A DNA stretch of 64,000 bases from Candidatus Latescibacterota bacterium (GTDB lineage Bacteria > Krumholzibacteriota > Krumholzibacteriia > WVZY01 > JAKEHA01), in contig OY970173.1 of the NCBI GenBank assembly GCA_963707635.1, forward strand, positions 2,400,001 to 2,464,000. The letters run 5' to 3'. A program made the position numbers and the translations under genes. Under the pieces are notes generated by a model. It was not told the DNA's origin. It was given only the letters and a program-made list of their open reading frames with translations, and ran no database searches. This document shows positions 36,228 to 62,570 of the stretch, one piece after another (position 1 is the stretch's first letter; each line of letters begins with the position of its first letter).

Positions 36228-36242
36228 CGTCGTCCTCCGTGC

Positions 36243-38903
36243 CTACCCGCGCAGCCGGTGGGCGGCTGCGGCGCCTTCCCGCTCGCGCCGTCGGCGCTTC
36301 ATGAAGATGAACACCCCGAGCACGAACACCGGCACGGGGGGAAGCAGCCCGGCCAGCGTCTTGATGCCGCTCTGGATGCGCCGCACCTGCGACTCCATGT
36401 CTTCCTTGCTGCGCTCGATCTTCACGTCGCGCTCGGATTCGATGGTCGCCTTCATGGTCTCGAAGCGCCGGTTCTCGGTCTCCTGCAGGCTGCGCGCCAT
36501 GATCTGCTTGGTGGTCGCGTCGAGGTCGGTGCGGCTCTCCACCTCGCTGACGCGCTCGTTCAGCCGCTGCTGCGCCTCCGCCAGCGCGGCCTGGGCGTCG
36601 GCCTGCGCCTGCTGCTCTTCCCCGGCCCGGCGTTCCGCGAACGCGCGGGTGCGCGACTCGACGGCGGTCAGGGTCCGGTGCTGGACCCGCCGGCGGCGCA
36701 GATCGACGAACGACTGGTCGCCGACCAGCACGTCGATGCAGTTGAGGAAGAACGAAACGTTGTCAAAATCCAGGTTCTCCAACCCGCGCCGCCGGATCTC
36801 GAAGAACTGGTCGGAGATGAAGTCCAGGTCGGCGATGAAGATGACGTTCACGTGGGTGGTGTCGCCGGCCGCGACTTTCTCGCCGGTCACGCGCGCGGCG
36901 ATCGGGTAGTCGGTCGAGGTCGCGTAGCGCGGTCCCTGGTAGGGCACCAGCCCCACGCCGAAGAAGCTCTTCTGCACGACCTGGCTGTAGTCGGTCGTCC
37001 CCGACGACGTGCTGCTCTTGATGATGGGCTCGAACGAAAACGGCGAGCCGCTCACCTTGGTAATGGCGCCGGGGAACAGGAACACGAGCTCCTGCAGCCC
37101 CTTCGACGCCGGGAAGGCGTCGTTGAAGGATTCGTTGTTGCCGTTGCCGCGTCCGACGAACACCACTTCGGGCGGAAGGTTCGCGAGCTCGGGGTGCGGG
37201 TTGTAGCGGTCCCACACGATCTGGGTCTTGCTCCAGAGCAACCCGAAGTTCCCCAGGAAGGTGCCGATGCCGCCCTTGGGCTTGGGTTGAGGGCCACGGT
37301 TGCGCATGAACGGGTTCACGTTGGCGCCGCTCTCCTCGTTCGGCCCGAGCCCAATGTCGAAGACCGGTACGGGGTCGTCGATCAGGAGCGCCGGGTGCCC
37401 GCGCCCGATGTATTCCTCGACGTGGTCCATCTCCTCCTGCGACAACGACGACGGGAGTGCCACCACCAGCGCGTCCAGCTTCTCCTGGATCGAATCCTGC
37501 GCCGAGACCTGCACCACCTCGTACTGTTTCTGCAACTCACCGACCACCGGCCACGGAGGCGTGCTCTGGAAGGTGTTGAAGTCCAGGCCGCCGAACATGC
37601 GCACCTGGGTCGTGACCACTCCCACCCGCTTGCGCGACGTGCGCGCAACCACCCGGATCGAACGCGCGATCTCGTACTCGGTCGGGAGCCCGCGGTCGAA
37701 GAAGCTGATCACGCTCTCTTCGCCGCCGCAGGTGAAGGCGACCCCCATGAACACCTTCATCACGTTGGCCTGCGAGCCTTCGATGTCGGGCACGTCCATC
37801 GGCAGGATGCCGAACTTCTCGCGCGCGTCGCGCGCCTCCTGGCTGTACGGCTCGGTGTCGTGGATCACCAGGTGGATCCGGTTGCCGCCGACCGCGTCGA
37901 ACTCGCGCAAGAACCCGAGCAGGTTCTCCCTCGGCTGCACGTACGCCCGCGGCACGTTCTTGCTGACGTAGGCCTGGATGAAGACCGGGCGATCGCCGGA
38001 GATCTCGTGGATCAGGCTCCGGCTCTCACCGGAAAGCGAATGCAGCCGCTCCGCGGTGACGTCGACACGCGCGCCCGCGCGCGTGAGCAGCGCGTGCGCG
38101 CTGATCAGCGCCACCGCGATCGCCACCGTGCGGATCGCAAAATGGAATCCCATGCGGTGCCCGCCGGCCGTCGGCGGCCAGTGGCGGCGCCCCACCAGCA
38201 CGACGTTGAGATAGAGCATCACGGCGACGATGCCCGCGAAATAGACGATCCCGGAGAGGCTCACCACGCCGCGCGCAAAGTCGCCGAAATAGTCGAACAC
38301 GGCCAGGCGCGCGCCGAAATCTGCGGCCGCCGGTCCGAAAACGCCCAGGACCCGCTCGACGTACACGAACCCGGCGCAGAAGATCGCCCCCAGAATGAAC
38401 GCAACCGTCACGTTCGCGCTCAAGCGCGACGCCAGCATCCCCACCGAGATGAACGCGGCGCCGATCAGCCAGTACCCCAGGTAGTTCCCGAGCATGAGCC
38501 CCAGGTCGGGGCGGCCGAGCCAGAACAGGACCAGCAGGTGGCTCAAGGACAGCAGTACCGCGCCGGTGAACACGCCGAGCGTCGCCAGATACTTGCCCAG
38601 CACCACCTCGAGGTCGGTGGCGGGCAGGGTGAGCAGGAGTTCCTCCGTCCCCTGCTTGCGCTCCTCGGACCACACCCCCATGGTGATGGCCGGCACGAAG
38701 AAGAGGAGCAGGTACGGGAACACGTCGTTGAGCTGCGACAGATTGGCGAGGTTGTTGAGGAAGAAGCGATCCTGCCAGAACGCAGCGGCCGCCGACAGGA
38801 ATATGAACAGCGTGATGAAGACGTACCCCGTCGGGTTGGAAAAATAGAGGCGAAGGTCGCGGCGGACGATCGCCCGGGTCACCACCCAGTTGATGGATCT
38901 CAT
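36243..38903 (-). CDS. Fused ABC permease (GldF-like) and GldG-family auxiliary domain
   Basis: YFSNPTGY, WSEERKQGTEELLLTLP, DVTAERLHSLS, EYEIARSI. Confidence 0.85.
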   Translation of the reverse strand: MRSINWVVTRAIVRRDLRLYFSNPTGYVFITLFIFLSAAAAFWQDRFFLNNLANLSQLNDVFPYLLLFFVPAITMGVWSEERKQGTEELLLTLPATDLEVVLGKYLATLGVFTGAVLLSLSHLLVLFWLGRPDLGLMLGNYLGYWLIGAAFISVGMLASRLSANVTVAFILGAIFCAGFVYVERVLGVFGPAAADFGARLAVFDYFGDFARGVVSLSGIVYFAGIVAVMLYLNVVLVGRRHWPPTAGGHRMGFHFAIRTVAIAVALISAHALLTRAGARVDVTAERLHSLSGESRSLIHEISGDRPVFIQAYVSKNVPRAYVQPRENLLGFLREFDAVGGNRIHLVIHDTEPYSQEARDAREKFGILPMDVPDIEGSQANVMKVFMGVAFTCGGEESVISFFDRGLPTEYEIARSIRVVARTSRKRVGVVTTQVRMFGGLDFNTFQSTPPWPVVGELQKQYEVVQVSAQDSIQEKLDALVVALPSSLSQEEMDHVEEYIGRGHPALLIDDPVPVFDIGLGPNEESGANVNPFMRNRGPQPKPKGGIGTFLGNFGLLWSKTQIVWDRYNPHPELANLPPEVVFVGRGNGNNESFNDAFPASKGLQELVFLFPGAITKVSGSPFSFEPIIKSSTSSGTTDYSQVVQKSFFGVGLVPYQGPRYATSTDYPIAARVTGEKVAAGDTTHVNVIFIADLDFISDQFFEIRRRGLENLDFDNVSFFLNCIDVLVGDQSFVDLRRRRVQHRTLTAVESRTRAFAERRAGEEQQAQADAQAALAEAQQRLNERVSEVESRTDLDATTKQIMARSLQETENRRFETMKATIESERDVKIERSKEDMESQVRRIQSGIKTLAGLLPPVPVFVLGVFIFMKRRRREREGAAAAHRLRG

Positions 38904-38916
38904 CGCTCCCACCCCC

Positions 38917-39666
38917 CTAGCGGCTCGCCGACGCTCGCGCGTCGGACCCGGTGAGCCGGTAAAACGTCTGCTCGAGTGTGCCCGCCTGGCGCAACTGCGC
39001 GGGCGGCCCGTCGAGGACCAGGCGGCCGTCGTTGATCAGGATCACGCGATCCGCGACTGCCTCGACTTCCTGGAGAATGTGCGTGGAGATGAGGATCGTC
39101 TTGGTGCGGCCGAGTACCTTGATGTTTTCGCGAAAGTCCCGGATCTGGTTGGGGTCAAGCCCGGCTGTCGGCTCGTCCATGATGAGCACGGCGGGGTCGT
39201 GGAGGAGCGCTTGCGCCAGCCCCACCCGCTGCCGGTACCCGCGCGAAAGCTTGCCGATGGGCTTCTCGATCACGTCGCGCAGCGCGCACTGGGTCACGAC
39301 CACGTCGATGCGCTCCTTGCACTTCGCCCCGAGCTCGCGCGCCTCGCCGAAGAAGCGCAGCAGCTCCAGCGGCGTCATGTCGTTGTACAGCGGCCCGTTC
39401 TCGGGCAGGTACCCGAGTGCGCGCGCGCCCTGGAGCCGCTGGCGGGTCATGTCGAAACCCGCAATGCGCGCGATCCCCGCGCTCGCCGCCAGGTAGCCGG
39501 AGAGGATCTTCATGGTGGTGGATTTCCCGGCGCCATTGGGCCCGAGAAACGACACGATCTGCCCCTCCGGGATGGAGAAGCTGACATCCTTTATAGCGAC
39601 GAACGGCCCGTAGTATTTCGACAGGCCCTCCGCCTCGATCATTACGCGACGCGGGGCATCCGCCAT
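38917..39666 (-). CDS. ABC transporter ATP-binding protein (GldA-like)
   Basis: GPNGAGKST, LSRGYRQRVGLAQAL, DEPTAGLDPNQI, STHIL. Confidence 0.93.
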   Translation of the reverse strand: MADAPRRVMIEAEGLSKYYGPFVAIKDVSFSIPEGQIVSFLGPNGAGKSTTMKILSGYLAASAGIARIAGFDMTRQRLQGARALGYLPENGPLYNDMTPLELLRFFGEARELGAKCKERIDVVVTQCALRDVIEKPIGKLSRGYRQRVGLAQALLHDPAVLIMDEPTAGLDPNQIRDFRENIKVLGRTKTILISTHILQEVEAVADRVILINDGRLVLDGPPAQLRQAGTLEQTFYRLTGSDARASASR

Positions 39667-41025: not shown

Positions 41026-41060
41026 TTTCGCCGTTAAGACTTTCGCCGCTAAGACTTTCG
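41026..41060. repeat. 15-bp tandem repeat (2.3 copies) duplicating a gene end
   Basis: TTTCGCCGTTAAGAC TTTCGCCGCTAAGAC TTTCG. Confidence 0.85.
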
Positions 41061-41963
41061 AAAGATGCGCCCGAACTCTTCCGCCAGCTCGAACGACGCG
41101 TCCACCGAACGCGGGTTGCGCGAATCGAGGTACTCGACGTTGACACCCAGCCGATCCTCCGGAAACCCGATCTGGGTGGCGAACGACGAGAGCCGGTCCC
41201 ACACCCCGGTCAGACACGAGATCGACGCCTCGCGCATGCTGCGCGCGCCTTTGAGCATCCTCTCGACGTCGCGGGGCATGAACACGCCGAGCGTCTTCTT
41301 GGCGAAGGTGATGTCCTCGGGTGCCACGAACGGCGAGAAGGTGAGGAACACCTTGGGCAGCTCGGACACCTCGAGCCGCTGCACCAGATCGAGCAGCAGA
41401 CAGCACATCCACTCGCTCTCGTATAGAATCTGCGTGCTGAAGAAGCGAAACCCGTGCGCCTGGATCTTCTGGATGACGCGATCCACTTCGTCTTCGGAGG
41501 CGGGGCGGGCGACGAACTGGCGCCGTCGCGTCGGGATGATGATGCCGCCGCAGCGAAAGCCGCGCGCGGCGGCGAGTGCCGCGGCCGCGCCCAGCGTCAG
41601 CGCGCCGTCCGGATAGGCCTTCGCACCCGAATCTCCACCCACCACGAAGATGTCCCGGCACCCGATCGCCGCGGCGCGGTCCAGCCACACTTCCATCTCG
41701 GCGGGGGTGACGCCGGCAGCCACCTTGTACAGGCTGAGCGGCTTTTCGGTCAGCTCGCGAATCCAGCGCGCGAATTCCTCGTTGGGGACGCGCTCGCGCT
41801 CGCGCTGGAACTCGCCCGAGTCCTGCAGGTCGGGGACGCTCACGGCGTGGAACGAGTTGTAGCACGCGAAGCTCTGGCGCAGGACGGCGTACGCCTTGTC
41901 GCGGTCCGCGAGCGGCGGCGGACACGCCTCCAGGATGACACGAACGTTGGTAATTTCGGACAC
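41049..41963 (-). CDS. Methylenetetrahydrofolate-reductase-like protein (resembles the mycobacterial type)
   Basis: LEACPP, FVVGGD, GGIIIPTR, FSTQILY, FLTFSPF; start uncertain. Confidence 0.6.
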   Translation of the reverse strand: MSEITNVRVILEACPPPLADRDKAYAVLRQSFACYNSFHAVSVPDLQDSGEFQRERERVPNEEFARWIRELTEKPLSLYKVAAGVTPAEMEVWLDRAAAIGCRDIFVVGGDSGAKAYPDGALTLGAAAALAAARGFRCGGIIIPTRRRQFVARPASEDEVDRVIQKIQAHGFRFFSTQILYESEWMCCLLLDLVQRLEVSELPKVFLTFSPFVAPEDITFAKKTLGVFMPRDVERMLKGARSMREASISCLTGVWDRLSSFATQIGFPEDRLGVNVEYLDSRNPRSVDASFELAEEFGRIFRKS

Positions 41964-42246
41964 GTCAGTCGACAGCAGACACCGGCGTCGGGCGGGCGCT
42001 CCCCCGGCCTTCAGGGGGGCGTAGCCACGCCGCAAGAGGCGGTAGTATGCGTGAAGTCGCGCGAATACTACTGCACGCGACCGCGGGGCACAACAGGAAA
42101 CCCGGGTGGGAAAAAGCTCGGGTCCGGCGCGTCAACCGACCCAGAACGGACGAGGTGGGTCCGCGTAAGCATCGATTCTCCAATCGACTCGCCGGTGGCA
42201 CGCGCGTTGCCCCGTACCCTGGCGGTGGTCCGCCGCCACCGTCACG

Positions 42247-45200
42247 ATGCACATCCGCCCAGTCATCGCCGCCGCCCTGGTGGCGGTCGCGCTCGCCGCC
42301 GACCTCCACGCCCAGACCCTGCCCGGGGGATTCTACGTCGAGAATGCCGCTTCCGGCGCGACTTTCGACACGCCGGTCGCGGTGGCGTTCGCGGCGGATG
42401 GCCGCGTCTTCGTGGCGGAAAAGTCAGGCGTGGTCTACGTCATCCAGAACGGGATCAAACTCGCGGCGCCGTTCATCGACCTCTCGTGGGACGTGCTGAA
42501 CCACCACGATCGGGGACTGCTGGGCATCGCCCTTGACCCGAGTTTTACGACCAACGGCCATGTCTACTTCCTCTATACCTTCGACTGGAACCAGGCCGGC
42601 GACACGCAGCGCACCGACGTGCCGGGTCGCCTCGTCCGTTACACGGCGAGTACAGCCAACCCAAACCTGGCCGACATCAATTCGCGGCTGGTGTTGCTGG
42701 GAAGCTCGTTTGCGAACGCGATTCCCGCGTGCTACTTCTCGCACGCGCCGGGTGCCCTGCGCTTCGGCACGGACGGCACCCTGCTGATCGCGGCCGGCGA
42801 CGGTGCCAGCTACAACGAGGTGGACCCGGGCGGTCTGTACCCGGACTGCTTCGGGTCCGGAAAGCTCCCGACCACCCAGGACATCGGTGCGTTCCGCGCC
42901 CAGTGGATTCAGAGCTACGCGGGCAAGATTCTCCGCGTCGATCCGGCGACGGGCAACGGGCTCCCGTCGAATCCGTATTACACGGGTAATGCCGCCGACA
43001 TCCAGTCGAAGGTGTGGGCGTACGGCCTGCGCAACCCCTATCGTTTCGGCGTACGGCCCAACGGCAGCGGGAATCCCGCCGACGGCAACCCGGGTTCCTT
43101 GTATATCGGCGACGTGGGCTGGAACACTTACGAAGAAATCAACGTCGCGCGCGCCGGTGGCGGCGAGAACTTCGGCTGGCCGTGCTACGAGGGCCCGAAT
43201 CCAAACGGCGCCTACCAGGCCGCGAACCCCGCGCACCACGGCTGCGCGACGATCGGGACCCCGCAGAATCCGTCGCCGCAAGTCCCCCCGCTCACCTACT
43301 GGCACCACGACAACGGCGGGCTGTCGTTCCCGCCCGGTGTCACCGGCGCCACGTCGATCGGCGGCGCGTTCTACACCGGCACGAAGTACCCGCCGTCGTA
43401 CCAGGGCGCCTACTTCTACGGCGACTACTCCGGCCAGTGGATCAAGGCGCTGGTGGTCAACACCAGCGACGATTACGTCTCCCAGTCCGACTTCGGCTCG
43501 TCGATGGGAGGGATCGTCGACATTCAGTACAACCCGGTCGACCAGTACCTCTATTACATCGATATCTTCAACGGGCAGGTCTTCCAGATCCGCCACGTCG
43601 ACGGAGACGCCAACAGCCCGCCAGTGGTGAGCGCGGCCGTCACGCCGCGCTGGGGCTACGCGCCGCTCCTGGTCCAGTTCGACGGAACCGCGTCGTACGA
43701 CCCGGATCAGGACCCGATCACCTTTGCATGGGATTTCGGCGACGGGGCGAGTGCCACCGGCGCCGTGACGTCCCACTCCTACGCCACCAACGGGACCTAC
43801 GTAGCCACGCTCACCGTGCGCGACGACTTCGGTGCCACCGCCACGGGGGTGGTCTCCATTTCGGTCGGCAATACCCCACCGCACGGGATCATCCGCTCCC
43901 CGGATAATGGCGCCAGCGCCTCGGTCGGTGACCAGATGCTGCTCTGGGCCCAGGCGACCGACGCCGAGTCGCCGGGGCAACTTTCCTTCCACTGGGAAGT
44001 GATTCAGACCCACAACCATCACGACCATCCGAACTTCTTCACCGCCGACGGTCCGATCGCGCAGTTCTACATCGCGGAACACGGACTCCCGAACGAGGTG
44101 AACTTCCTGCGCGTCGAACTGCGCGTGACCGACGCCGGCGGCCTGACCGACACCAGCCGGGTGTACATCGCGCTCAATCGCAACGGCGAGGCCGACATCA
44201 CGGACGAGGGCGCGGCCGGAGCACTCGTCACTTCGCCCGGCGGGTCCGGCAGCCCCGACCTCGCGGTGATTCACGACGGCGTGTTCCCCCCGGCCGGCAG
44301 CGGCGACCCGCTCGCGCAGTACGACACGTTCACCGACGGATCGCCGCGCGCACAGGACTGGGTTGAATACACCTTCCCGGGAACGCGCTATTTCTCGAAG
44401 CTGGTCTTTCAGGAGGGAATGCATTTCCCCAACGGAGGGTGGTTCGAAGCGCCCGGAGTCGAAGTGTTTGCCGACGGTATCTGGTCACCGGTCGAGTTCC
44501 TCCAGGCGGTCCCGCCCTACCGCGGCAACGACGGGGTCAGTTACGACATTTACGCCCTCACGTTCAAGGCGCACGCCGGAACCGGGATCCGCCTCATCGG
44601 GGCCCCGGGCGGGTCCGGCGACTACATCTCGATCGGCGAGCTCCGGGTCTTCGAGATCCCGCGCGCCCAGTTCAGCGCTGACACCCGAGCCGGCTCCAAC
44701 CCGCTCACGGTCCACTTCACCGACGAGTCGAACGTGACCGAACCCGAATCGTGGCTGTGGCGCTTCGGCGACGGCGCGACCAGCACCGAACAGCACGCTG
44801 CCCACGTGTACACGGTGCCCGGTCCCCACACGGTGAGCCTGACGGTGACGAGTGCGCAGGGCACCTACTTCGAGGAGAAACACGCGTACATCCTGGTGGG
44901 AGCGCCAGGGCTCGCCGCGGAGTACTTCGACGATCTCGGCCTGGCGACTCCCCGGCTGGCGCGTATCGACGCGGCGATCGACTTCAACTGGGGTACCGCT
45001 TCGCCCGACCCGTCCATCGGCGCGGACTCGTTCTCCGTGCGCTGGTCCGGATGGCTCCAGCCGCGGTACACGGAGACCTACCTGCTCCGCACGACGACCG
45101 ACGACGGGGTTCGCCTCTGGGTTGACGGTGCGCTCGTCATCGACAAGTGGGTCGATCAGTCCGCCACGGAGTGGAGCGCGTCGCTTCCACTGGTCGCCGA

Positions 45201-46269
45201 CGAGTTGCACGAGATCCGGATGGAATACTATGAGAAGGGAGGGGGCGCCACTGCACGGCTGCGATGGTCCTCGCCTGGCCAGGCGCTCGAGGTCATTCCG
45301 CAGTCGCGGCTGTGGGCGCGCGAGTGCGGAGCCGGTACCGGCGACATGGACGGCAACGGCACGCTGACCCCCGGCGACGCGTTGTGCGCGTTCAGCACAT
45401 TCTTGAACGGCCAGACGGTGCCTCCCTCGTGCGACGCGGCGAATTACGACTGCGAACGGGCGGCCGCGGACACCGATTGCAACGGCGCCGTCACTCCGGC
45501 GGATGCGCTGGCGGTCTATCAGCACTACCTCGCCGGACTCCCGCTCCAGATCTGCCTGGGACAGGCTGCGCCGGCGTCCTTCACGTCCAGCGTGGCAACG
45601 CCCCGGGTGTCGGTGGCGGTCGTGTCGTCGCCGGTCGACGGCTCGGTAGAGGTGTCGGCCACGGCGCTGGACGCGAGCGGGCTCGACGCCTTCGGCGCAC
45701 GCGTGGTCTTTCCCGCCGACGAGTTCACCTTCGATCGTCTGCTGCCCTCGCCGGATACCGGCGACTGGCTGATGCTGGACGCGCGGGCCACCGTCGCCGG
45801 GTCCGCTCAGGTCGGCGGCTGCAACCGCCACGGCCTCGGCAGCGAACCCGCGGAGCTGTTCCGGGTACGACTCCTTCCCGCCGGTGCCAACGCGCAGGCG
45901 AGTCACATCGTCGTTACGGATTTCGTCGACGACCTCGCGGGCGCCGTCGTGACCGATGCCCCCCCATCCGCGGCGCCGTCATCCGCGTTTCGCCTCCACC
46001 AGAATCGCCCGAATCCGTTCAACCCGGTCACGCGTATCTCCTTCGAAGTGCCCGCCGGCGCGGGGCGGGTGCCGGTCCGGCTGGCCGTGTACTCGGTGCG
46101 CGGCGAACTCGTGCGGGTGCTCGCGGACGGCGAACGCGCGCCCGGACCCTACGAAGCCACGTGGGACGGCCGTGACGAGCGCGGCGCGCCCGTGACCTCC
46201 GGCATCTACTTCTACCATCTGCGCGCCGGGACGTATTCCGCGTCGCGGCGCATGGTGCTGCTCAAATGA
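42247..46269 (+). CDS. Secreted modular protein: PQQ sugar-dehydrogenase propeller, PKD domains, PA14, dockerin-like, cohesin-like, FlgD-Ig tail
   Basis: RGLLGIALDP, GKILRVD, GLRNPYR, GDVGW; WDFGDG and WRFGDG; DSFSVRW, DDGVRLW; GDMDGNG..DTDCNG; NRPNPFNP..RMVLLK. Confidence 0.85.
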   Translation: MHIRPVIAAALVAVALAADLHAQTLPGGFYVENAASGATFDTPVAVAFAADGRVFVAEKSGVVYVIQNGIKLAAPFIDLSWDVLNHHDRGLLGIALDPSFTTNGHVYFLYTFDWNQAGDTQRTDVPGRLVRYTASTANPNLADINSRLVLLGSSFANAIPACYFSHAPGALRFGTDGTLLIAAGDGASYNEVDPGGLYPDCFGSGKLPTTQDIGAFRAQWIQSYAGKILRVDPATGNGLPSNPYYTGNAADIQSKVWAYGLRNPYRFGVRPNGSGNPADGNPGSLYIGDVGWNTYEEINVARAGGGENFGWPCYEGPNPNGAYQAANPAHHGCATIGTPQNPSPQVPPLTYWHHDNGGLSFPPGVTGATSIGGAFYTGTKYPPSYQGAYFYGDYSGQWIKALVVNTSDDYVSQSDFGSSMGGIVDIQYNPVDQYLYYIDIFNGQVFQIRHVDGDANSPPVVSAAVTPRWGYAPLLVQFDGTASYDPDQDPITFAWDFGDGASATGAVTSHSYATNGTYVATLTVRDDFGATATGVVSISVGNTPPHGIIRSPDNGASASVGDQMLLWAQATDAESPGQLSFHWEVIQTHNHHDHPNFFTADGPIAQFYIAEHGLPNEVNFLRVELRVTDAGGLTDTSRVYIALNRNGEADITDEGAAGALVTSPGGSGSPDLAVIHDGVFPPAGSGDPLAQYDTFTDGSPRAQDWVEYTFPGTRYFSKLVFQEGMHFPNGGWFEAPGVEVFADGIWSPVEFLQAVPPYRGNDGVSYDIYALTFKAHAGTGIRLIGAPGGSGDYISIGELRVFEIPRAQFSADTRAGSNPLTVHFTDESNVTEPESWLWRFGDGATSTEQHAAHVYTVPGPHTVSLTVTSAQGTYFEEKHAYILVGAPGLAAEYFDDLGLATPRLARIDAAIDFNWGTASPDPSIGADSFSVRWSGWLQPRYTETYLLRTTTDDGVRLWVDGALVIDKWVDQSATEWSASLPLVADELHEIRMEYYEKGGGATARLRWSSPGQALEVIPQSRLWARECGAGTGDMDGNGTLTPGDALCAFSTFLNGQTVPPSCDAANYDCERAAADTDCNGAVTPADALAVYQHYLAGLPLQICLGQAAPASFTSSVATPRVSVAVVSSPVDGSVEVSATALDASGLDAFGARVVFPADEFTFDRLLPSPDTGDWLMLDARATVAGSAQVGGCNRHGLGSEPAELFRVRLLPAGANAQASHIVVTDFVDDLAGAVVTDAPPSAAPSSAFRLHQNRPNPFNPVTRISFEVPAGAGRVPVRLAVYSVRGELVRVLADGERAPGPYEATWDGRDERGAPVTSGIYFYHLRAGTYSASRRMVLLK

Positions 46270-46279
46270 GGCCGGAGCG

Positions 46280-48106
46280 ATGAGAACGACGATCCTTTTC
46301 GCCGCCGTCGGTGTCGTCCTCGCGGCGTCCGTCGCACGCGCGCAGATTTCCGTCAACCCGGCCGCATCGACCGCCGGCTCCGGCGGTCAGTACGCCTACG
46401 TCGCGCTCGACCTCGACAACCCGGCGGGGACACCGATCGATGCGTTCGGCTTCCAGATCGCGTATCCGACGAACCTGCTCACGTTCCAGTCGATGTCCAG
46501 CGCCGCGACGCTGACCCAGGGCTGGTTCGTCGTCTCGGGGTCCGAGAATTCCCCCGGTGTCGTGCAGGTCGGAGGCTTTCACTCGACGGCGACCACCGGC
46601 ACGGGCGTGCTCGTCTACGCGGTGTTCCTGGTGAAACCGAATGCGCTCGGCACCGGCGCCATCGCGCTGTCCGACTTCGTCGACGACTTCGCCGGTGCCA
46701 CCACCGTGAACGGTGTCTTCCAGGCGGGTGTCGCGCCCGGCGCCGCGGGGTTGCTCGGACACTACTACGACAACATCAACTTCACCGGCGCGTTGCTCAC
46801 CCGCGTCGATCCCGTCGTCAACTTCGACTGGGCCAGCGGCGCACCCGACCCGTCGATGGGAATCAACGATTTCTCGGTTCGGTGGACGGGCTGGGTACGG
46901 CCCGCTTTCACCGAGACCTACACGTTCTACAGCCAGACCGACGACGGCGTACGCGTGTGGGTAAACAACCAGCAGATCATCAACCACTGGGTCGACCAGT
47001 CCGTCACCGAATGGAACGGGAGCATCGCGCTCACCGCCGGAGCGCTGGTGCCGATCACGATGGAGTTCTACGAACGCGGCGGGACGGCGGTGGCGCGGCT
47101 CCTGTGGTCCTCCCCGAGCCTCGCGAAGCAGGTGATTCCCAGTTTGCGACTGCAGGCGACGCCGTGCGCGCAGGGCGTGGGCGACGTCGATGGAGACGGC
47201 CTCCTCGAGACGAGCGACGCCGTCTGCGCGTTCAGCGTGTTCCTGGAAGGCCAGCAACTCGCGCCCGGGTGTGACTATTCGACCAACGCGTGCGAGCTCG
47301 CCGCCGCCGACGCGAACTGCGACGGCGAGGTGACCCCGGGCGATGCCCAGGCCATCGAGCAGCGGCGCGCGGCCGGCCTTCCGCCCGCCGCGTGCTTCGC
47401 CACCGCGGCGGCGCCGGCCCAACCTCTCCAGCTTGCGCTCACGCAGGATGTGGTCGACGACGCGGGTACGCCGCGCCTTCTCGTCACGATCGCGGCGCAG
47501 GATGCGGCTGGCCTCGACGCCTTCGGCGGCAGACTCGTCTTTCCGGCGGCGGAGCTAACGTTCCAACGCGTCGAGTCCGGGTATGCCACCCGCGACTGGC
47601 TCGCCGTGGACGCGCGAATCGCCGACGCCGGTCAGCTTCGGATCGGCGGGTACGAACCCGTGGTCGCGGCCGAACCCGGCCCCGCTGTCATCTGCCACCT
47701 TTATTTCGACTTCAGCGGCCCGCCCCACGTCGTCGGCGGGCTCGCTTTCTCCGATCTGGTAGACGACTTTGCCGGGGCGACGATCGTGGGCACGGTCACC
47801 GCGGTGCCGTCGCTCACCGGCGAGTACCGACTGCACCAGAATCGGCCCAACCCGTTCAACCCGTCGACCCAGATCCCATACGAGGTGGCGGGCCCCCGCT
47901 CGGGAGAACACGTTCGCATCGCCATCTACGACGTGCGTGGGGCACTCATCCGCCTCCTGGTCGACGCCGACCACCCACCCGGCTCCTACCTCGCCACCTG
48001 GGATGGGCGTGCGAACGACGGGGCCGAAGTGTCCTCGGGAGTCTATTTCTGCTCGATGCGGGCGGGAGGGTATGCGCAGTCGCGTCGGATGGTCCTGCTC
48101 AAGTAG
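46280..48106 (+). CDS. Secreted modular protein: cohesin-like, PA14, dockerin-like, cohesin-like, FlgD-Ig tail
   Basis: Signal peptide; IDAFGFQIAYP; DFSVRW, DDGVRVW; GDVDGDG..DANCDG; LDAFGGRLVFP; NRPNPFNP..RMVLLK. Confidence 0.83.
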   Translation: MRTTILFAAVGVVLAASVARAQISVNPAASTAGSGGQYAYVALDLDNPAGTPIDAFGFQIAYPTNLLTFQSMSSAATLTQGWFVVSGSENSPGVVQVGGFHSTATTGTGVLVYAVFLVKPNALGTGAIALSDFVDDFAGATTVNGVFQAGVAPGAAGLLGHYYDNINFTGALLTRVDPVVNFDWASGAPDPSMGINDFSVRWTGWVRPAFTETYTFYSQTDDGVRVWVNNQQIINHWVDQSVTEWNGSIALTAGALVPITMEFYERGGTAVARLLWSSPSLAKQVIPSLRLQATPCAQGVGDVDGDGLLETSDAVCAFSVFLEGQQLAPGCDYSTNACELAAADANCDGEVTPGDAQAIEQRRAAGLPPAACFATAAAPAQPLQLALTQDVVDDAGTPRLLVTIAAQDAAGLDAFGGRLVFPAAELTFQRVESGYATRDWLAVDARIADAGQLRIGGYEPVVAAEPGPAVICHLYFDFSGPPHVVGGLAFSDLVDDFAGATIVGTVTAVPSLTGEYRLHQNRPNPFNPSTQIPYEVAGPRSGEHVRIAIYDVRGALIRLLVDADHPPGSYLATWDGRANDGAEVSSGVYFCSMRAGGYAQSRRMVLLK

Positions 48107-48143: not shown

Positions 48144-48219
48144 TGGTGCGAAGGGACGGAATTGAACCGCCGACACAGGGATTTTCAGTCCCTTGCTCTA
48201 CCAACTGAGCTACCTTCGC
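48144..48219 (-). tRNA. tRNA-Phe(GAA)
   Basis: GCGAAGGTAGCTCAGTTGG...AGGGA-CTGAAAA-TCCCT...GTTCAATTCC...CCA. Confidence 0.95.
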
Positions 48220-48390: not shown

Positions 48391-49428
48391 CTAGCGCGAG
48401 CCCTCTCCTCCGTCTTCCTTGCGCGCCGCAATCGGTGCCGGCGGCGGCGGCGGGTTGTTGTTCAGGTAGTCGATCGCCGACAGCAGGAGCCCGCTCATGT
48501 ACTGGCGGTTGTGCACGCCGATACTCCGGTCCTCCTCGACCAGCAGGAAGTTCCAGATCGCCCCGGCCTCGTCCGAGGTTCTGGTTCCGGCCGTGGGCAA
48601 GCCGGTCGAGGCATTGAGGAAGCCCCGCCCGACGAGGAGGGTGCGCAGCGAATCCACGAGTTCGGCGGTCTCGGTCTGCACCCCATCGATGTCAAAGTTG
48701 GTCGTGGTGCCGTGGCAAGGCACACAGGCAGCGGTGTTGAGGATCTCGCCCTCCTCGTCCACCCAGCGCATGTTCCAGGTGTGACCGCCCACCTTGCTGT
48801 TCCGCGTGTATTTCATGTGACAGTCCCAGCACCCGTTCTCGGTGGCAGAACGGTGCTCGGTTTGCTGGTACGAGTAGCCCGCATACTCGTATCCGTTCGA
48901 GCCCATGATCATGTCGCCCTGCACGCTGTGGTGGGGACCCCAGCGATTGTTGGCGATGGTGACGGTTCCGCCCTCCACGTACGTTTCGACATTCTCGCGT
49001 GCGTGGTGGCACGAGGCGCACAGGTTTCCGAAGCCGAGGTCGAACTTGAACCCGTTCTGCAACGCCTGCGTCTCTGTCACGCGGAGTCTGAAGTCGCCGT
49101 TGGTGTGCGGCGCGTGGCAGGTGAAGCAGTGGATTGCGGTGGGGTTATCGACGTTGGCCGGCATCGTCCCGGTTTCGATCCGCGACACAAACCCCTCGCT
49201 GGTATGACACCCGTTGCACGGCGTCGTGCTGCGGTTGGTGTTGAGACTGCTCCCGTGAACGGAATGCTCCCATTGCAAGGTATTTGCAATGATCTCCGTG
49301 TCCTGGTCCGAGTGACAGTTGAAACACGTTTGTGGAGTGGTGTCCTCGGCCACGGTCGTCACGCTACGGTCACACGCGTAGAGCGACGCCGCGGCTGCGA
49401 CACACACCCAGATTCGAAGTTGTTTCAT
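48391..49428 (-). CDS. Hexaheme c-type cytochrome lipoprotein
   Basis: Lipobox LYA-C; 6 CxxCH (CFNCH, CNGCH, CFTCH, CASCH, CWDCH, CVPCH); C-terminal DRSIGVHN. Confidence 0.88.
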   Translation of the reverse strand: MKQLRIWVCVAAAASLYACDRSVTTVAEDTTPQTCFNCHSDQDTEIIANTLQWEHSVHGSSLNTNRSTTPCNGCHTSEGFVSRIETGTMPANVDNPTAIHCFTCHAPHTNGDFRLRVTETQALQNGFKFDLGFGNLCASCHHARENVETYVEGGTVTIANNRWGPHHSVQGDMIMGSNGYEYAGYSYQQTEHRSATENGCWDCHMKYTRNSKVGGHTWNMRWVDEEGEILNTAACVPCHGTTTNFDIDGVQTETAELVDSLRTLLVGRGFLNASTGLPTAGTRTSDEAGAIWNFLLVEEDRSIGVHNRQYMSGLLLSAIDYLNNNPPPPPAPIAARKEDGGEGSR

Positions 49429-49469
49429 CGTGGTTTCCCTCCTGCAGCGCCGGCTCATCGCCGGCTGTC

Positions 49470-51059
49470 TCACTCCGTTGAAAAATCGTATCCGACGTTC
49501 AGCCAGACGACGTTCGCCGTGTAGTAGCGAGCGGCGACGAGGTAATCGTCGTAGTTGTAGACGTTGTACTTCGCATCGACGCTGAAACCCCGCGGAAGCG
49601 CGCAGCCGAGGTCGAACGAGAGGATCGACTTGACGATGTCCAGATCGTCGGTGATGCTCACGACGGTGACGCCGGCGCCCGCCGTGAGCCTGTCGAACAC
49701 ATCCGCGTGGACGCGCCCGGTGACAAAGTCGCTCTTCACGTGGTACCCACCCACGGTGTTGACATAATCGTCATCCGAATACTGATAGCTCACTTCCACG
49801 TGGGCCGCGTCGAGGCCGGCGTCGCCCGAGAACTCGTGGTCGTAGCGGCCGTAGGCCGAGGCGTAGAAGCCATCCGCCTGCGAGCCGATATCCGGCATCT
49901 CGCGGTTGCGCTCGGCGAGGCGACCGCCCACCGTGATGCCCGTTACGGGTTTGGTTTCGATGCGCGCGTCCCAGCGGTCGTACTCGGTGTCGCGCAGGAG
50001 CGTCTGGTCCTCTTCGTCTTCCTTGCTGCGCGTCGACCAGGAGAATCGGGCCGAAACCTTGTCCGCGCGCAGTGCGAGGGCCGCGCGGAGGTTGTCGTAC
50101 GTGGTCACCGAGCGGTCGTCGTCCCACGCCTCCCAGCCGTACCCGCCCGAGAGCGTCGCGATGCGGTAGCGCACCTCGATGTCGCCGTCGTGGATATACC
50201 GGTTGGTCCGGAGATTCGTCGCCTCGTCGTCGACCTGTCCGCCGTAGAAGCGGTATTTCGCGCGCAGCGCCGGCCACAGCGCGAGCACGCCCGTGTACTG
50301 GATCGTCTCCATGTCGTACCCGAGGCCCGACTCCTTGAGTTCGTTGCGTCCGATCGACGCGCGCACCACGTGGGTGAGTCGGTCGAAGAACAGGCCCGGG
50401 ACGTGCAGGTTCGCGGAATACACCCGCCCCTCGCGCTCGTTGAGCGCCGACACGTGGTCGGTCAGATTGGCGACGTCGGCCGCGATGGTCCCGCCGATGC
50501 CGTTGGACGCGCGCATCTGGGCCTCGATGCGGTAACGGTTCAGGTCGAAGTCGTAGGTCGTGCCCAGCGCGCTCTGGACACCGGACGGGTACCCGATCCG
50601 GTCGCCCTCCCGCGTCTGGAGGCCGTAGTCGGCCGAGAGCCAGATCCACTTCGCCGGGGTGAGCGACAGCGTCGACCAGAAGTCGCGCCGCATCGCGTCC
50701 ACCGCGCCCGCCGGGTCGAACACAAAGCGGCTCTCGTCGTAGCGCGACCGGAAGTGCAGCATCCCGGTACGGCGGAAGTCGAGCGTGCCGTTACGATCGT
50801 CGAGGTTGATGTCGTTGAGGTTGAAGCGAAGGTGCGTCTTCGGATTGAATCGGCCCTTGAGGTAGAGCGAGGTGACCGAGTAGCCCTCGTAGACGTTGAA
50901 CGTCTCCTGCATCACGCTCTGGTCGCCGACTTCGTCCTTGACGATACCGCCCATGCGGATCCCTCCGTCCCACACCGAGGTGGAATCGGCCCGGGCGCTC
51001 CCCGCGATCAGCATCGCGCTCGCCCATGCAAGGAGAATCAGGATCCGTCTCATGGTCAT
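49470..51059 (-). CDS. Outer-membrane beta-barrel, MtrB/PioB-like porin
   Basis: Signal peptide; alternating Y/D/R-rich strands; terminal strand WLNVGYDF; sits between decaheme and lipoprotein cytochromes. Confidence 0.78.
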   Translation of the reverse strand: MTMRRILILLAWASAMLIAGSARADSTSVWDGGIRMGGIVKDEVGDQSVMQETFNVYEGYSVTSLYLKGRFNPKTHLRFNLNDINLDDRNGTLDFRRTGMLHFRSRYDESRFVFDPAGAVDAMRRDFWSTLSLTPAKWIWLSADYGLQTREGDRIGYPSGVQSALGTTYDFDLNRYRIEAQMRASNGIGGTIAADVANLTDHVSALNEREGRVYSANLHVPGLFFDRLTHVVRASIGRNELKESGLGYDMETIQYTGVLALWPALRAKYRFYGGQVDDEATNLRTNRYIHDGDIEVRYRIATLSGGYGWEAWDDDRSVTTYDNLRAALALRADKVSARFSWSTRSKEDEEDQTLLRDTEYDRWDARIETKPVTGITVGGRLAERNREMPDIGSQADGFYASAYGRYDHEFSGDAGLDAAHVEVSYQYSDDDYVNTVGGYHVKSDFVTGRVHADVFDRLTAGAGVTVVSITDDLDIVKSILSFDLGCALPRGFSVDAKYNVYNYDDYLVAARYYTANVVWLNVGYDFSTE

Positions 51060-51065
51060 CACCCG

Positions 51066-52004
51066 CTAGAACTGATGGCACCCCACCACCGTGCAGCCCT
51101 GCGCCGCCAGCGAGGGGTCGAGCAGTTTCGCGTTGTCATACGAGCCGTGGACGTCCACGTGACAATCGTTGCACGGCACACCCGCCCACGAGGTGCCATG
51201 ATTCACGTTGTTCAGGTGCTTGGGCACAGCGTGACACTGCAAACACAACGCGAAGTCCGGCGATTCATAGCTCTGTTTGAGCAGGCGCGGCTGCGTCGAC
51301 CCGTGTGCCGCGTGGCAATTCAAGCACCCGCCCTCTTCCGTGGAGTAGTCGACGGCCGCCTGGTGCTCGTACGGGAACGGCCCCTCGAATTGCGCGTGGC
51401 ACGTGGTGCAGGTCGTCCCCGGCCCGGTGTAAACGTGCTGCTTGGAGCTCTGCGCCACCGACAGATGGCAGTCGCTGCACGCCACCACACCCTCCATCAC
51501 CGGATGGTGGGACGGCATGGCAAAGTCGCCCTGCGCGGACGCGTGGCACGAAAAGCACAGCGTGGGCTGCTCGTCCTTGAGCAGACCGAGGTGGGCGCTG
51601 CTGTGAACCTGGTGACAGCCCGTACAGGAAACGTCCGCGTCCGCGTGCGGATCCCGCTCGAAGAGATTCAGCGTGTGTGGGTGCTCGTGGCAGGTCGTGC
51701 ACACCGCCGTCACCGAGTCGGCTCGCATGTGGGCCGGATTGACCGCCGGGTTCTCGTCCGGGTCGTCGAGGTGCTGGTCGGTCGCCGCGCCGGCGTGGCA
51801 GCCCAGGCACGACACGACCTTCCCGGCGGCAGGATCGTGGGGAGTGCCGGCCATGGCGTGCACCTGTGATTCGTGGCAATCCAAGCACGCCTCGTCGGAA
51901 GCTGCATCGGTCTGGGTGGAACGCGCTCCACCGATCGCGAAAACGAACGCGAAACTCAAGAGGATGAGGGCGAAGGCGAAGATGGTGCGACGAGGGTGTC
52001 TCAT
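51066..52004 (-). CDS. MtrA/DmsE-family decaheme cytochrome c with an extra CX4CH
   Basis: 10 CxxCH; SHHPV, GPFPYEH, CHAAHGS, CHVDVHGS signatures; terminal CTVVGCH. Confidence 0.88.
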   Translation of the reverse strand: MRHPRRTIFAFALILLSFAFVFAIGGARSTQTDAASDEACLDCHESQVHAMAGTPHDPAAGKVVSCLGCHAGAATDQHLDDPDENPAVNPAHMRADSVTAVCTTCHEHPHTLNLFERDPHADADVSCTGCHQVHSSAHLGLLKDEQPTLCFSCHASAQGDFAMPSHHPVMEGVVACSDCHLSVAQSSKQHVYTGPGTTCTTCHAQFEGPFPYEHQAAVDYSTEEGGCLNCHAAHGSTQPRLLKQSYESPDFALCLQCHAVPKHLNNVNHGTSWAGVPCNDCHVDVHGSYDNAKLLDPSLAAQGCTVVGCHQF

Positions 52005-52020
52005 TGCAAGTTCTTGCATC

Positions 52021-52048
52021 AGTATATTCCGGTCCGATTCTCTGTCAA
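52021..52048 (-). promoter_or_regulatory. Sigma70-like promoter TTGACA-N16-TATACT
   Basis: Near-consensus boxes in an AT-rich intergenic stretch upstream of the MtrA-like gene. Confidence 0.65.
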
Positions 52049-52074
52049 TAAACTACTGACTGTCCTGTATAGGT

Positions 52075-52092
52075 TTGCGTAGAGTTTCACAA
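52075..52092. promoter_or_regulatory. Rex-like operator TTGCGTA-GAGT-TTCACAA
   Basis: 12 of 14 positions match TTGTGAA-N4-TTCACAA. Confidence 0.45.
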
Positions 52093-52218
52093 AGAAAAAT
52101 TGAATCACATATACCCATGACATTATATGCGCGCTGGCATACGGCGATCGAGGCGTGCGCGCTGAGTCGGTCTGCGTCCTGACGCCGTCCTTCCCAACCG
52201 AAATCGGATCGGACACCG

Positions 52219-53541
52219 TTAGCGTGAATCGAGCTGCCGTATCTTGAGAAACAGCGCGAGCGCGAGGATGGTCGTAAACAGGGTCGCCATCCCGAACCCG
52301 CGCCGGCGCACGTGGAAGTCCTTGATCTGTCGGGCGGCGAGATCGAGGGCTTCGTTCGCCTTGGCGAGACCCTCCGACGTCTTGGCCCCTACCTTCTCGG
52401 GGTCGAACGTGTGCACGAGCGTTCGCGATTCGATCAGGCTCTGGTGCGATTCCTGAAGGAGGAACCCGATGTCGACGTCGTCCATGCCGATGCGCTGGAC
52501 TTCGGCCTGACGGTTGAGAGCATCCTCCTGCGCCGCGGAAAGCGACGCGAGACTGACATGGATCTTCCCGGCGGTCTCGAAACCGACGTCACCCTCCGAA
52601 TGGCAATCGATGCAGACCGCGCCGCTGACGTTCCCGACCATGGAATCGGAGGTCTTTTTCACGCCATGGTTGCCGTGACACTCCTCACAGCCATGGTAGC
52701 CCTCCTCCACGAACGCGCGGCCCATTCGTGACTCGGTGAAATACCGCATATTGTTGGCATGGCATTGTCCGCACACCTGGGTGATGGACGTGATCCCCGG
52801 CGGCGTCGCGCCGTGGTTTCCGTGGCAGTCGTTGCACGCGGGAGCACCGGTATCCTCTTTCTCGAGCAGCGCGACCCCGTGCACGCTGTGCTTGAACTCC
52901 TCGAGCTGATTGGTGGGGATGCCGTAGGGCGCCATGTACTCCGCGTCCCCGTGACACCTCCCGCACGTTGCCGGGACGTTCATCGCGTTCACCGTCGATC
53001 GAGTGTCGGACGCGGGGAGGATTCCGTGGGCGGTGTGGCAGCTCGTGCAATCCGCGACCTTCTGGTCGTGCTGCTTCAGCTTGTGTCCGTGCACGGAGGA
53101 GGCATACTGGCTCTCCTGGTCGGTCGGAATGCGCGGCTGGTACTGCCGCATGAAGTCGATGTCCGAATGACAGCGACCGCAGAACGCGGGGATTTGTTCC
53201 TTCGAAGGGACGCCCCGAAACCCGGCCGTGGCGCTCATGGCGCGATCCTGATCGTCCTCGGCGGGGTTGCCGCCGTGACACCCCGCGCACGACAACCCGG
53301 GCTTCATGTGGATGTCGGCCTCGAGGAAGTGCTCGGGCAGATTGTCGTCCTCGGTGTGACACGCGACGCAATGATCGACCGCGGGTTCCTTCGCCGACAC
53401 TTCGGCCGCCTCGTCTTTGCGCGCTGCTTCATCTTCTTCGTCGGCCAGACCCGGGCCGACGACGAGGATCGACAGCCCGAGCCACACCACCACTGTCCAC
53501 GCCCGCCCGTGGCGGGCCACGGCCGCACGACCGGTCGTCAT
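52219..53541 (-). CDS. Nonaheme c-type cytochrome with C-terminal membrane anchor
   Basis: 9 CxxCH; signal peptide; C-terminal TM helix; ATGA-coupled to cytochrome b. Confidence 0.9.
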
Positions 53542-54662: not shown

Positions 54663-54668
54663 CGGCGC

Positions 54669-55100: not shown

Positions 55101-55267
55101 TAACGAATCCGATTATCCGGTATACGAGGCAGTCTATTCAAGTGGGCCCGTAACGTCCACCGGTAATTCGCGTAAACTCGGGCCCGCGTGTCCGGGCGGG
55201 AACCGGAGCCCGAGGTTGACAGGGCCGCCGGTGCCGTCATAGCATGCAGAACAGCCGCTCGTCATTC

Positions 55268-57400: not shown

Positions 57401-57525
57401 ACCGCGCTGCGCCGGAGCCTATCCAAAACTATGCAACGAATCTGTTGGTGAAGCGCGCCTCGCGCGCTATGCTATCATTGGCTGCATTGGACTGCCGCCT
57501 CTGCGGCGCCGAAAGGAGAAACGCA

Positions 57526-58116: not shown

Positions 58117-58176
58117 GCACCGGCGGGTGCGCGGCTCCCCGGGCAGAGCGAAAGCCGGGCGTCGACCAGAACCAGA

Positions 58177-58214
58177 CGGGCGGGTTCATCGAGAACCCGC
58201 CCGATCTTTTTTTT
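58177..58214 (+). terminator. Intrinsic terminator
   Basis: CGGGCGGGTTC-ATCGA-GAACCCGCCCG followed by T8. Confidence 0.85.

Positions 58215-61044: not shown

Positions 61045-62570
<1,526 letters not shown>

Follow-up and report, generated by a model that had tools for sequence, protein, structure and literature searches.

A dockerin-cohesin-tag tail, probably self-capped, on two secreted proteins of a Candidatus Latescibacterota bacterium

A stretch of 64,000 nucleotides (nt) from a Candidatus Latescibacterota bacterium (GenBank assembly GCA_963707635.1, contig OY970173.1, positions 2,400,001 to 2,464,000, forward strand; hereafter the window) encodes two adjacent secreted proteins, P1 and P2, that share a C-terminal tail of PA14, dockerin, cohesin and FlgD-Ig domains. 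The cohesin and dockerin modules were confirmed as true, divergent members of their folds, and each dockerin is likely capped in cis by the cohesin directly behind it. P2 carries a further, spare cohesin at its N-terminus. On the reading favored here, which we regard as having an even chance of being correct, both tails are self-capped and P1 clips onto the spare cohesin of P2 by exchange after likely type IX export. The source genome (G000) is a single contig of 3.2 Mb and is 96% complete. It likely belongs to the Krumholzibacteria, since a P2 homologue labelled Candidatus Krumholzibacteria is almost identical to the orthologue from a genome of the genus. Papers are cited by PMC accession for the passages that concern the point at hand.

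Domain architecture of the gene pair

P1 and P2 are encoded on the same (forward) strand with a gap of 10 nt, and their tails are 46% identical across 474 columns (E 6e-128). P1 runs from a signal peptide through a six-blade GSDH propeller, a PKD domain, an Ig-like domain, an F5/8-like domain and a second PKD domain to PA14, dockerin, cohesin and FlgD-Ig, and P2 from a signal peptide through a cohesin to the same four terminal domains. Pfam detected GSDH, two PKD, PA14 and FlgD_ig on P1, and PA14 and FlgD_ig on P2. The open reading frames (ORFs) and the comparisons described below confirm the termini as they had been read in an earlier note on this DNA, which was made from the letters alone. 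That note had further described both proteins as secreted and non-cellulosomal, in agreement with the signal peptides seen by eye, the FlgD-Ig domains and the cargo: no dockerin-bearing glycoside hydrolase, lyase or esterase was found, P1 having the GSDH propeller and the two other dockerin proteins detected in the source genome repeats or a beta-helix. It had also likened P2 to a scaffold, and P2 does appear scaffold- or adaptor-like, with two cohesins and no catalytic domain found by Pfam or in a model of the full protein. The two PKD domains and the probable F5/8 type C domain of P1 are additions to that description; for the latter (amino acids (aa) 645-808) no sequence match was found in Pfam or the PDB. 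Foldseek matches of the P2 PA14 domain included sugar-bound PA14 domains. The features are as follows, in window coordinates.

42247-46269, forward: P1 gene, 1340 aa (ORF list, Pfam); signal peptide at about aa 1-22, by eye
42364-43557, forward: P1 GSDH-family propeller, aa 40-437 (PF07995, E 4e-29; alignment to Escherichia coli Asd 2g8s)
43612-43857, forward: P1 first PKD, aa 456-537 (PF18911, two stretches)
44179-44670, forward: P1 probable F5/8 type C domain (discoidin/CBM32-like), aa 645-808 (Atlas features, 0.93 to F5/8 clusters, a lead only)
About aa 808-884, forward: P1 second PKD (PF18911; position read from the sequence)
44899-45303, forward: P1 PA14, aa 885-1019 (PF07691, E 7e-27; DDG motif at 952)
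45319-45570, forward: P1 dockerin, aa 1025-1108 (paired Ca-loop motifs and six Cys; helices with two-fold symmetry)
45592-45975, forward: P1 cohesin directly behind the dockerin, aa 1116-1243 (family profiles)
45991-46266, forward: P1 FlgD-Ig C-terminal domain (PF13860), likely a type IX secretion tag
46280-48106, forward: P2 gene, 608 aa; signal peptide by eye
46343-46729, forward: P2 N-terminal spare cohesin, aa 22-150 (face residues as in the tail cohesins)
46742-47140, forward: P2 PA14, aa 155-287 (PF07691, E 5e-22; DDG motif at 221)
47159-47410, forward: P2 dockerin, aa 294-377 (asymmetric)
47414-47806, forward: P2 cohesin directly behind the dockerin, aa 379-509 (predicted packing against the dockerin)
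47825-48103, forward: P2 FlgD-Ig C-terminal domain, after a low-confidence linker (aa 508-513)
48144-48219, reverse: tRNA-Phe(GAA), outside the system, separating the pair from convergent cytochrome genes

The Ca-loop motifs begin at residues 1032 and 1075 of P1 and 301 and 344 of P2. The three cohesin repeats share DAFG (P1 1147; P2 54 and 413) and VDD(L/F) (P1 1227; P2 134 and 494), and are pairwise 24-33% identical (36/127, 30/124 and 41/125).

Identity of the cohesin and dockerin modules

Pfam alone left both module types below cut-off, so that annotation pipelines would mostly miss the tail: on P2, Dockerin_1 reached 14.5 of the 22.9 bits required and Cohesin 13.5 of 24.1 bits, and on P1 both were absent from the list. 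For family profiles, 31 dockerins and 50 cohesins were taken from relatives. Against the PDB, the ten best matches of the dockerin profile were all dockerins or dockerin-bearing cellulosome chains (top 8ajy_B, E 1.5e-4), and the top match of the cohesin profile was the Archaeoglobus cohesin 2xdh (E 1.3e-3). An AlphaFold model of the P2 dockerin-cohesin dyad (aa 294-509) reached a predicted local distance difference score (pLDDT) of 92.9 and a predicted template modeling score (pTM) of 0.90, and comprised three helices and nine strands, the dockerin helices at 18-29, 46-50 and 60-71 (pLDDT 86-98) following the order loop-helix, short helix, loop-helix. When this model was used in a VIA structure search, the first 20 rows were all cohesins (Z 9.2-12.7, root-mean-square deviation (rmsd) about 3 A) and the next unrelated row scored 8.1; the top alignment of the P2 C-terminal cohesin covered 121 residues at Z 12.7 and rmsd 2.9 A. 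Foldseek also gave 2xdh as the best match of the cohesin (E 2.6e-7). The dockerin part aligned to 4fl4_A, 2ccl_B, 8ajy_D and 6kg9 with middling scores (Z 7.5-7.7, rmsd 2.6-3.9 A, 62-76 residues). The P2 N-terminal cohesin and the P1 cohesin were assigned by homology. The profile comparisons, Foldseek and VIA thus bear out the cohesin and dockerin folds that had been proposed from the letters.

The Ca ligands at loop positions 1, 3, 5 and 12 read DDND and DDND in P1, and DDDD and DNDD in P2, and were kept in 166 and 146 of 175 family loops. The conserved dockerin Cys pointed out in the earlier note number six and were retained in 148-173 of the 175 family members. Coupling analysis paired C316 with C331 (z 7.2) and C296 with C338 (z 6.9), leaving C347-C372 as the third pair by elimination, and a dockerin with three disulfides is accordingly predicted from the alignment. 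The strand-3 Asn/Asp recognition residues of type I cohesins, of which we take N37 to be one, were not found: A-F-G aligns to N-C-D of 4ums. D39 is a dockerin contact of a type I cohesin (PMC4728124, the passage on this residue).

Dockerin and adjacent cohesin as one unit

When 36 genomes of the order were searched with a dockerin-only profile, an in-frame cohesin lay 4-15 codons behind 43 of 44 dockerin matches, and the single exception carried an internal stop; the profile was made from dyads and may let distant dockerins escape, the second locus of the source genome reaching merely E 0.02. A wider search with the dyad gave 423 clusters, and among the best 150 representatives, a set biased by the dyad query, a cohesin followed 141 of 146 dockerin matches, the remaining five being one duplicate match, three chain ends and one apparent frameshift. 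In 162 of 164 cases, a tether of 12-37 aa separates the last dockerin Cys from the first cohesin strand. Tether lengths have a sharp lower limit of 12, and the sequence is low in complexity and rich in Ala, Pro, Ser and Thr; the linker had a pLDDT of 82 in the dyad model. The pTM was 0.90 for the P2 dyad versus 0.64 for the full P2 model, and since the cohesin makes up just about 60% of the dyad chain, the former value would, from the definition of pTM, indicate a confident relative orientation of the two modules. This packing in the model suggests that the dockerin is likely capped in cis by its own adjacent cohesin. Branching polymers would then not be the default outcome, and, with each dockerin and its following cohesin behaving as one unit, one cohesin per pair would be free. 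The proposal in the earlier note that one dockerin with two cohesins allows branching polymers is therefore weakened, the adjacency and the dyad model coming near the intramolecular binding which that note had itself set against its proposal.

An open polymer would be formed if the dockerins bound only or mainly in trans, giving head-to-tail chains that branch at the two cohesins of P2 to make a mesh on the surface, with the cis packing a folding artefact of modeling one chain. The excess of cohesins over dockerins in the pair (three against two), the conservation of faces throughout, the symmetric dockerin of P1 (see below) and the precedent of Ruminococcus bromii Amy4 (PMC4611034, the passage on Amy4) are all consistent with such chains. 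However, the tether suffices for a confident cis model and is almost never shorter than 12 aa, as a limit of reach would give, and cis closure should dominate once it is possible. This alternative is considered quite unlikely.

Spare cohesins, binding face and dockerin symmetry

Among the 36 genomes of the order, 34 of 77 cohesin matches were not immediately behind a dockerin. The putative face residues (A414, G416, G456, F/Y458 and D495 in P2 numbering) were compared across 173 post-dockerin, 93 pre-dockerin and 34 other cohesins and were kept about equally in the three classes, with Gly/Ala at outward strand positions. G416, for example, was kept in 164/173, 84/93 and 32/34, and D495 in 158/173, 81/93 and 31/34, respectively. 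Pre-dockerin cohesins stand at a fixed spacing (20-24 residues in 82 of 92) and have no tether with which to reach round. Furthermore, small cohesin-only genes lie directly behind dyad genes in four genomes (G050, G086, G113 and G014), and three dockerin-less, scaffoldin-like proteins (P0155, P0121 and P0104) carry four to five cohesins of this family joined by Pro/Thr linkers; one dockerin-less multi-cohesin protein ends in a hydrophobic stretch with a basic tail. With one and the same face kept by spare cohesins and by those of dockerin-less proteins, trans binding by them is likely, as judged from sequence conservation. As a scaffoldin, P2 would offer two cohesins, one of them likely capped, and a divergent multi-cohesin gene occurs elsewhere in the source genome.

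The two dockerin repeats agreed at equivalent positions at z>4 in 12 of 24 comparisons with shuffles, versus 0-2 of 24 at each of four false offsets; these z-values ignore kinship, which counts against the reading favored here. The P1 dockerin is symmetric, with agreement at 8/8 face positions (8/8 also in all seven P1-type dockerins shown), and the P2 dockerin is asymmetric, at 2/8 (0-2/8 in all ten P2-type dockerins shown). In solved complexes, a symmetric dockerin corresponds to a dual binding mode and an asymmetric dockerin to a single mode (PMC5934362, the passage on binding modes).

An intramolecular function alone would also account for part of these results. Dockerin and cohesin would form a rigid base, stabilized by Ca and disulfides, between cargo and anchor, with P1 and P2 independent of each other and the spare cohesin a spacer. 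In agreement with this are the near-obligate adjacency of the two modules, the dyad pTM, the tether floor of 12 aa, the export and anchoring tag of every chain, and the occurrence of the P1-type propeller without a dockerin in four other genomes, which argues that docking is not needed for its function. It is at odds with the same small-residue face being kept on spare, rigidly fused and dockerin-less cohesins and with the small cohesin-only genes right behind dyad genes in the four genomes named above, and it gives no reason for the halves of the P1 dockerin to have stayed alike. We consider it unlikely, if a serious contender.

Secretion and anchoring

The source genome encodes SprA (TIGR04189, 231.7 bits), PorV (PF19572, 74.1 bits) and PorU (NF033707, 529.7 bits), each over cut-off. 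FlgD_ig was over cut-off in both P1 and P2, with a weak Por_Secre_tail match on P2; the FlgD-Ig domain also matches the C-terminal region of the PorU model, and 96 ORFs of the genome end in the same FlgD-Ig-like domain. Because SprA, PorV and PorU are encoded, the FlgD-Ig domain is likely a type IX secretion tag. In type IX secretion, such tags are cleaved off by PorU, which also fixes the cargo to the cell surface. The presence of PorU and the low-confidence linker before the tag suggest that P1 and P2 would undergo the same cleavage and surface attachment. Since each chain would be anchored by its own tag, the modules would cross-link chains rather than recruit them.

A second C-terminal motif was also observed. 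In the source genome, 39 ORFs, one of them in the window at about 24147-25442 (forward), end in [TS]WGx[IVL]Kxx[YF], often with an added R; loci L020, L051, L057 and L074 were noted in the same connection. In relatives, this motif or one like it also terminates the dockerin-less cohesin proteins encoded behind dyad genes, and it may be a second, minimal sorting signal. Separately, positions 34863-39666 (reverse) of the window encode an ATP-binding cassette (ABC) ATPase, a fused permease/ABC_transp_aux protein and a DUF4340 protein, which are syntenic with the pair in relatives and which we take to resemble GldA, GldF and GldG of type IX-bearing bacteria.

Proposed exchange between P1 and P2

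In the exchange proposed at the outset, both chains would be exported with the dockerin closed on its own cohesin, after which PorU would remove the tag and anchor each chain via its own C-terminus. Until it encounters a free cohesin, the dockerin would be held shut by the cis cap. The one-orientation dockerin of P2 would stay capped, making P2 a lectin-bearing adaptor with one free cohesin. The two-orientation dockerin of P1 would swap onto the N-terminal cohesin of P2 and thereby free the P1 cohesin for another dockerin. The outcome would be P1-P2 dimers or short chains, with no branched gel by default.

Several further points weigh against this exchange. A short-tethered cis partner should outcompete a free cohesin, and exchange may be rare. 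A one-chain model would not separate cis binding from head-to-tail binding between chains, and the dyad model scores would speak for packing and not for which cohesin face the dockerin occupies. The direct-coupling signal between dockerin and cohesin was not above that of shuffled pairings at the present depth of 169 post-dockerin dyads (top z 5.0 versus 4.1-5.1); among 93 pre-dockerin pairs the top three couplings (z 7.3-8.7) were an artefact of overlapping domain borders, and the rest fell within the shuffle range. The face mapping rests on the 4ums alignment, the D39 passage and type I numbering, and the face residues differ from those of type I cohesins, as described above. At one position, where 166 of 173 cohesins have Phe or Tyr, the P1 cohesin has Cys. 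The dual binding mode may be an ancestral trait, with selection for it unproven (PMC12484212, the passage on this mode). Lastly, the pair was not found in nine of 16 genomes of the genus, which are 68-91% complete.

Some of these points would also fit modules that no longer bind each other and are kept as structural or adhesive domains for their fold: Pfam is below cut-off, no inter-domain coupling was detected and the type I Asn/Asp face residues are gone. Such a loss is scarcely credible in view of the kept Ca ligands, the Gly/Ala conserved at outward positions in all cohesin classes, the fixed module order and the confident packing of the model.

Distribution and portability of the tail

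P2 was found in seven of 16 other genomes of the genus, and P1 lies directly upstream in six of these seven, the seventh (G071) having both genes at contig ends. Just the tail of P1 is assembled in one genome (G122), and P1 is frameshifted in another (G077). An apparent P1-P2 fusion in the latter, an open frame of 2439 aa, was rejected since the P1 tail continues in another frame, which points to a frameshift or assembly error in the P1 cohesin. Weaker dyads occurred in 23 of 201 genomes of the class, the source genome included.

The dyad search mentioned above covered 1.84 billion representatives and returned 423 protein clusters at E<=0.001; cluster detail was drawn from the best 150 and Pfam was run on 43. 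Cargo in these 43 relatives included M10, M64 and C1 peptidases, FG-GAP, RCC1, beta-helices, CotH, several propellers and others. The four genomes with the P1-type propeller and no detected dockerin have it together with legume-lectin or LamG domains. Since unrelated cargo carries the tail and the propeller occurs without a detected dockerin, the tail is considered portable and the cargo exchangeable. In a broader and tentative version of the proposed exchange, which we suspect claims too much, type IX-secreted proteins of uncultured diderms would share the tail as a general 'snap' that inhibits itself, the cis cohesin covering the dockerin during export. Free cohesins on adaptors such as P2 would trigger exchange at the surface, and as every exchange would release a further cohesin, mixed-cargo chains would grow outward from the adaptor. 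If true, the 'snap' would amount to latched, nucleated assembly, a behavior undescribed for cohesin-dockerin systems in the literature surveyed.

The genome-wide count suggested in the earlier note yielded one more protein with the tail and one divergent dockerin/multi-cohesin gene pair. The former (L009 8693-12304; G000:C1:1324692-1328303, +) has tandem repeats of about 100 aa, a four-Cys dockerin and an extra domain before FlgD-Ig; most genomes of the genus encode similar proteins. The more divergent pair (L010 9289-16166; G000:C1:1647288-1654165, -) consists of a beta-helix protein with dockerin, cohesin-like and FlgD-Ig domains at its end and, behind it, a protein of cohesin/Big_2 repeats that also has FlgD-Ig; both genes appear frameshifted, which may reflect errors of assembly. 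In another family, two genomes were seen to have a small cohesin-FlgD gene (L075 4242-5183, -; L076 1292-2164, +) directly upstream of a P1-like propeller gene, no dockerin being detected in the latter.

Propeller chemistry and the cytochrome neighborhood

P1 had been described as carrying a pyrroloquinoline quinone (PQQ)-type aldose dehydrogenase propeller. Membership in the GSDH family stands, as do key residues: His166, Arg262 and Asn263 are invariant in eight homologues, and the Arg-Asn pair aligns to 2g8s. By motif, His166 is presumably the catalytic His (His144) of sGDH/Asd. In P1 blade 6, GGIVD replaces the RIRD of E. coli Asd 2g8s, and both C-terminal PQQ-binding Arg are gone. Roles for the catalytic His and for the Arg-Asn pair, which binds the quinone oxygens, are given in PMC6881789 (the active-site passages), according to which Arg406 and Arg408 of the bacterial enzymes ion-pair with the PQQ carboxylates and a fungal AA12 enzyme substitutes one Arg from elsewhere; the corresponding passage of PMC1781467 places Arg406/Arg408 merely beside the active site. 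As AA12 replaces one Arg and P1 has other invariant Arg, P1 may use PQQ all the same. None of pqqB, pqqC or pqqE was over cut-off in the source genome (91/245, 59/240 and 36/381, in three distant places). With two PQQ-binding Arg missing, the assignment of P1 as a PQQ-type aldose dehydrogenase is uncertain; P1 likely binds, and possibly oxidizes, surface or substrate sugars. The best PDB sequence matches of the propeller were HHIP and Pyrobaculum aerophilum Asd, at about equal score. Five more GSDH-family genes were seen in the source genome (660945, 1663097, 2318049, 3028321 and 3029451), none with RxRD in local alignment; the first looks frameshifted.

The earlier note had also speculated that extracellular sugar oxidation feeds a nearby cytochrome conduit. 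For this, P1 would be a working PQQ aldose dehydrogenase passing electrons into a porin-cytochrome conduit, in keeping with the GSDH match, its three invariant residues, a DmsE/MtrA-like decaheme gene 3 kb off and a cytochrome cluster that adjoins the pair in five of seven relative loci (G071 has an adjoining contig without the cluster, and G080 is indeterminate). The cytochrome genes, however, are convergent, on the opposite strand and beyond the tRNA-Phe, which holds the same position in six of seven relative loci. Upstream ABC and epimerase genes are equally syntenic with the pair, making the adjacency unselective. Furthermore, the decaheme gene occurs in 13 of 16 genomes of the genus, seven of these (68-91% complete) without the pair found, and in 18 of 22 other genomes of the family, while the pair of G071 has no adjoining cluster. 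The Arg residues of RxRD are absent, the pqq matches fall short of cut-off and lie far apart, and a heme domain is lacking from both proteins. Electron transfer of this kind is very improbable, and the speculation is unsupported.

The cytochrome cluster itself (48391-62570) is large and multiheme, and includes the DmsE/MtrA-like decaheme (TIGR03508 below cut-off), a cytochrome b, a beta-barrel-like protein of 530 aa without a family match and several c7-type proteins fused to cytochrome b561-like domains. On the other side of the pair, an ORF at 41049-42035 (reverse) without a Pfam or NCBIfam match shares 80-83% identity with its counterparts in four relatives, which exceeds the conservation of the neighboring genes, and overlaps the gene of an enolase-superfamily epimerase.

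Comparison with known cohesin-dockerin systems

Non-cellulosomal cohesin-dockerin pairs are known, and their function is largely untested. The present locus offers a small, well-predicted test case in the form of a symmetric and an asymmetric dyad of 210 residues each, together with a single spare cohesin, and an answer on capping and exchange would carry over to the tail in 423 clusters with very different cargo. A disulfide-stapled, probably orthogonal, self-latching pair could also serve designer scaffolds. In the literature surveyed, which took in few subscription papers, no paper was found on this tail or on a cis-capped dockerin, and supplementary tables (e.g. S4 Data of PMC9012536) could hold similar architectures. 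No literature match linked cohesin and dockerin to Krumholzibacteria or Latescibacteria, or type IX secretion to Krumholzibacteria; cohesin/dockerin scaffolds are absent from the main text of a Latescibacteria paper (PMC4454575), and the relevant passages of PMC5590126 and PMC5864761 hold nothing on cis pairing or cohesin face residues. Non-cellulosomal complexes have been proposed from genomes of ANME (anaerobic methanotrophic) archaea (PMC9012536) and Chlorobium (bioRxiv 10.64898/2026.03.19.712371), in the passages on these complexes.

By fold, twin Ca loops and the occurrence of both symmetric and asymmetric dockerins, the modules resemble cellulosomal type I pairs (1ohz, 2ccl, 2vn5) and adaptor scaffoldins (8ajy, 5n5p). 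They differ from cellulosomal pairs in the lack of glycoside hydrolase cargo, in the A-F-G in place of the N-C-D face, in the six-Cys dockerin and in cognate-looking modules that are adjacent in one chain. The P1 propeller belongs with the six-blade family of Acinetobacter calcoaceticus sGDH (1c9u), E. coli Asd (2g8s) and HHIP and keeps the catalytic His and Arg-Asn; unlike sGDH and Asd, it lacks the blade-6 Arg, and the lectin-like domains fused to it are exchanged from one homologue to the next. The Archaeoglobus fulgidus cohesin 2xdh was the best sequence-profile and Foldseek match of the cohesin and tied for best in VIA (Z 12.6), but is archaeal and 13% identical. To our knowledge, the A. 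fulgidus cohesin protein has no PA14 domain, catalytic domain or secretion tag. Cohesin-dockerin pairs of A. fulgidus presumably multimerise, as cited in PMC4611034, and the pair has been used as an orthogonal pair (PMC9705933, the passage on its use).

R. bromii Amy4, of the amylosome, is likewise a secreted enzyme in which a cohesin and a dockerin occur together; binding between these two modules of Amy4 has been shown, and the formation of multimers proposed (PMC4611034). As described there, this GH13 amylase comes from a Firmicute, its dockerin is C-terminal, and the scaffoldin of the system is anchored by sortase. By contrast, a Cys-rich dockerin here directly precedes the cohesin on a short tether, with a type IX-like tag behind, and the unit is repeated on hundreds of cargo proteins. 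The cellulosome-like structure of Candidatus Stygibacter (Cloacimonadota), as outlined in PMC8542988, is similar in that an uncultured diderm secretes dockerin and cohesin proteins with a C-terminal surface-attachment domain and non-cellulolytic cargo, both systems being known from genomes alone. There, enzymes with C-terminal dockerins accompany one scaffoldin of 3,755 aa with tandem cohesins, whereas here each dockerin has its own cohesin behind it and each chain its own tag. The planctosome of Nemodlikiaceae, in the account given in PMC6461901, is also a proposed non-cellulosomal complex, with an adaptor in which the dockerin is N-terminal to the cohesin; it is found in Planctomycetes, has a hyaline-repeat domain between the two modules and peptidase cargo, and no type IX tag is described in that account. 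Relative to these systems, what is new is a fixed dockerin-cohesin-tag tail, probably self-capped according to the dyad model, and the division between the symmetric dockerin of P1 and the asymmetric dockerin of P2.

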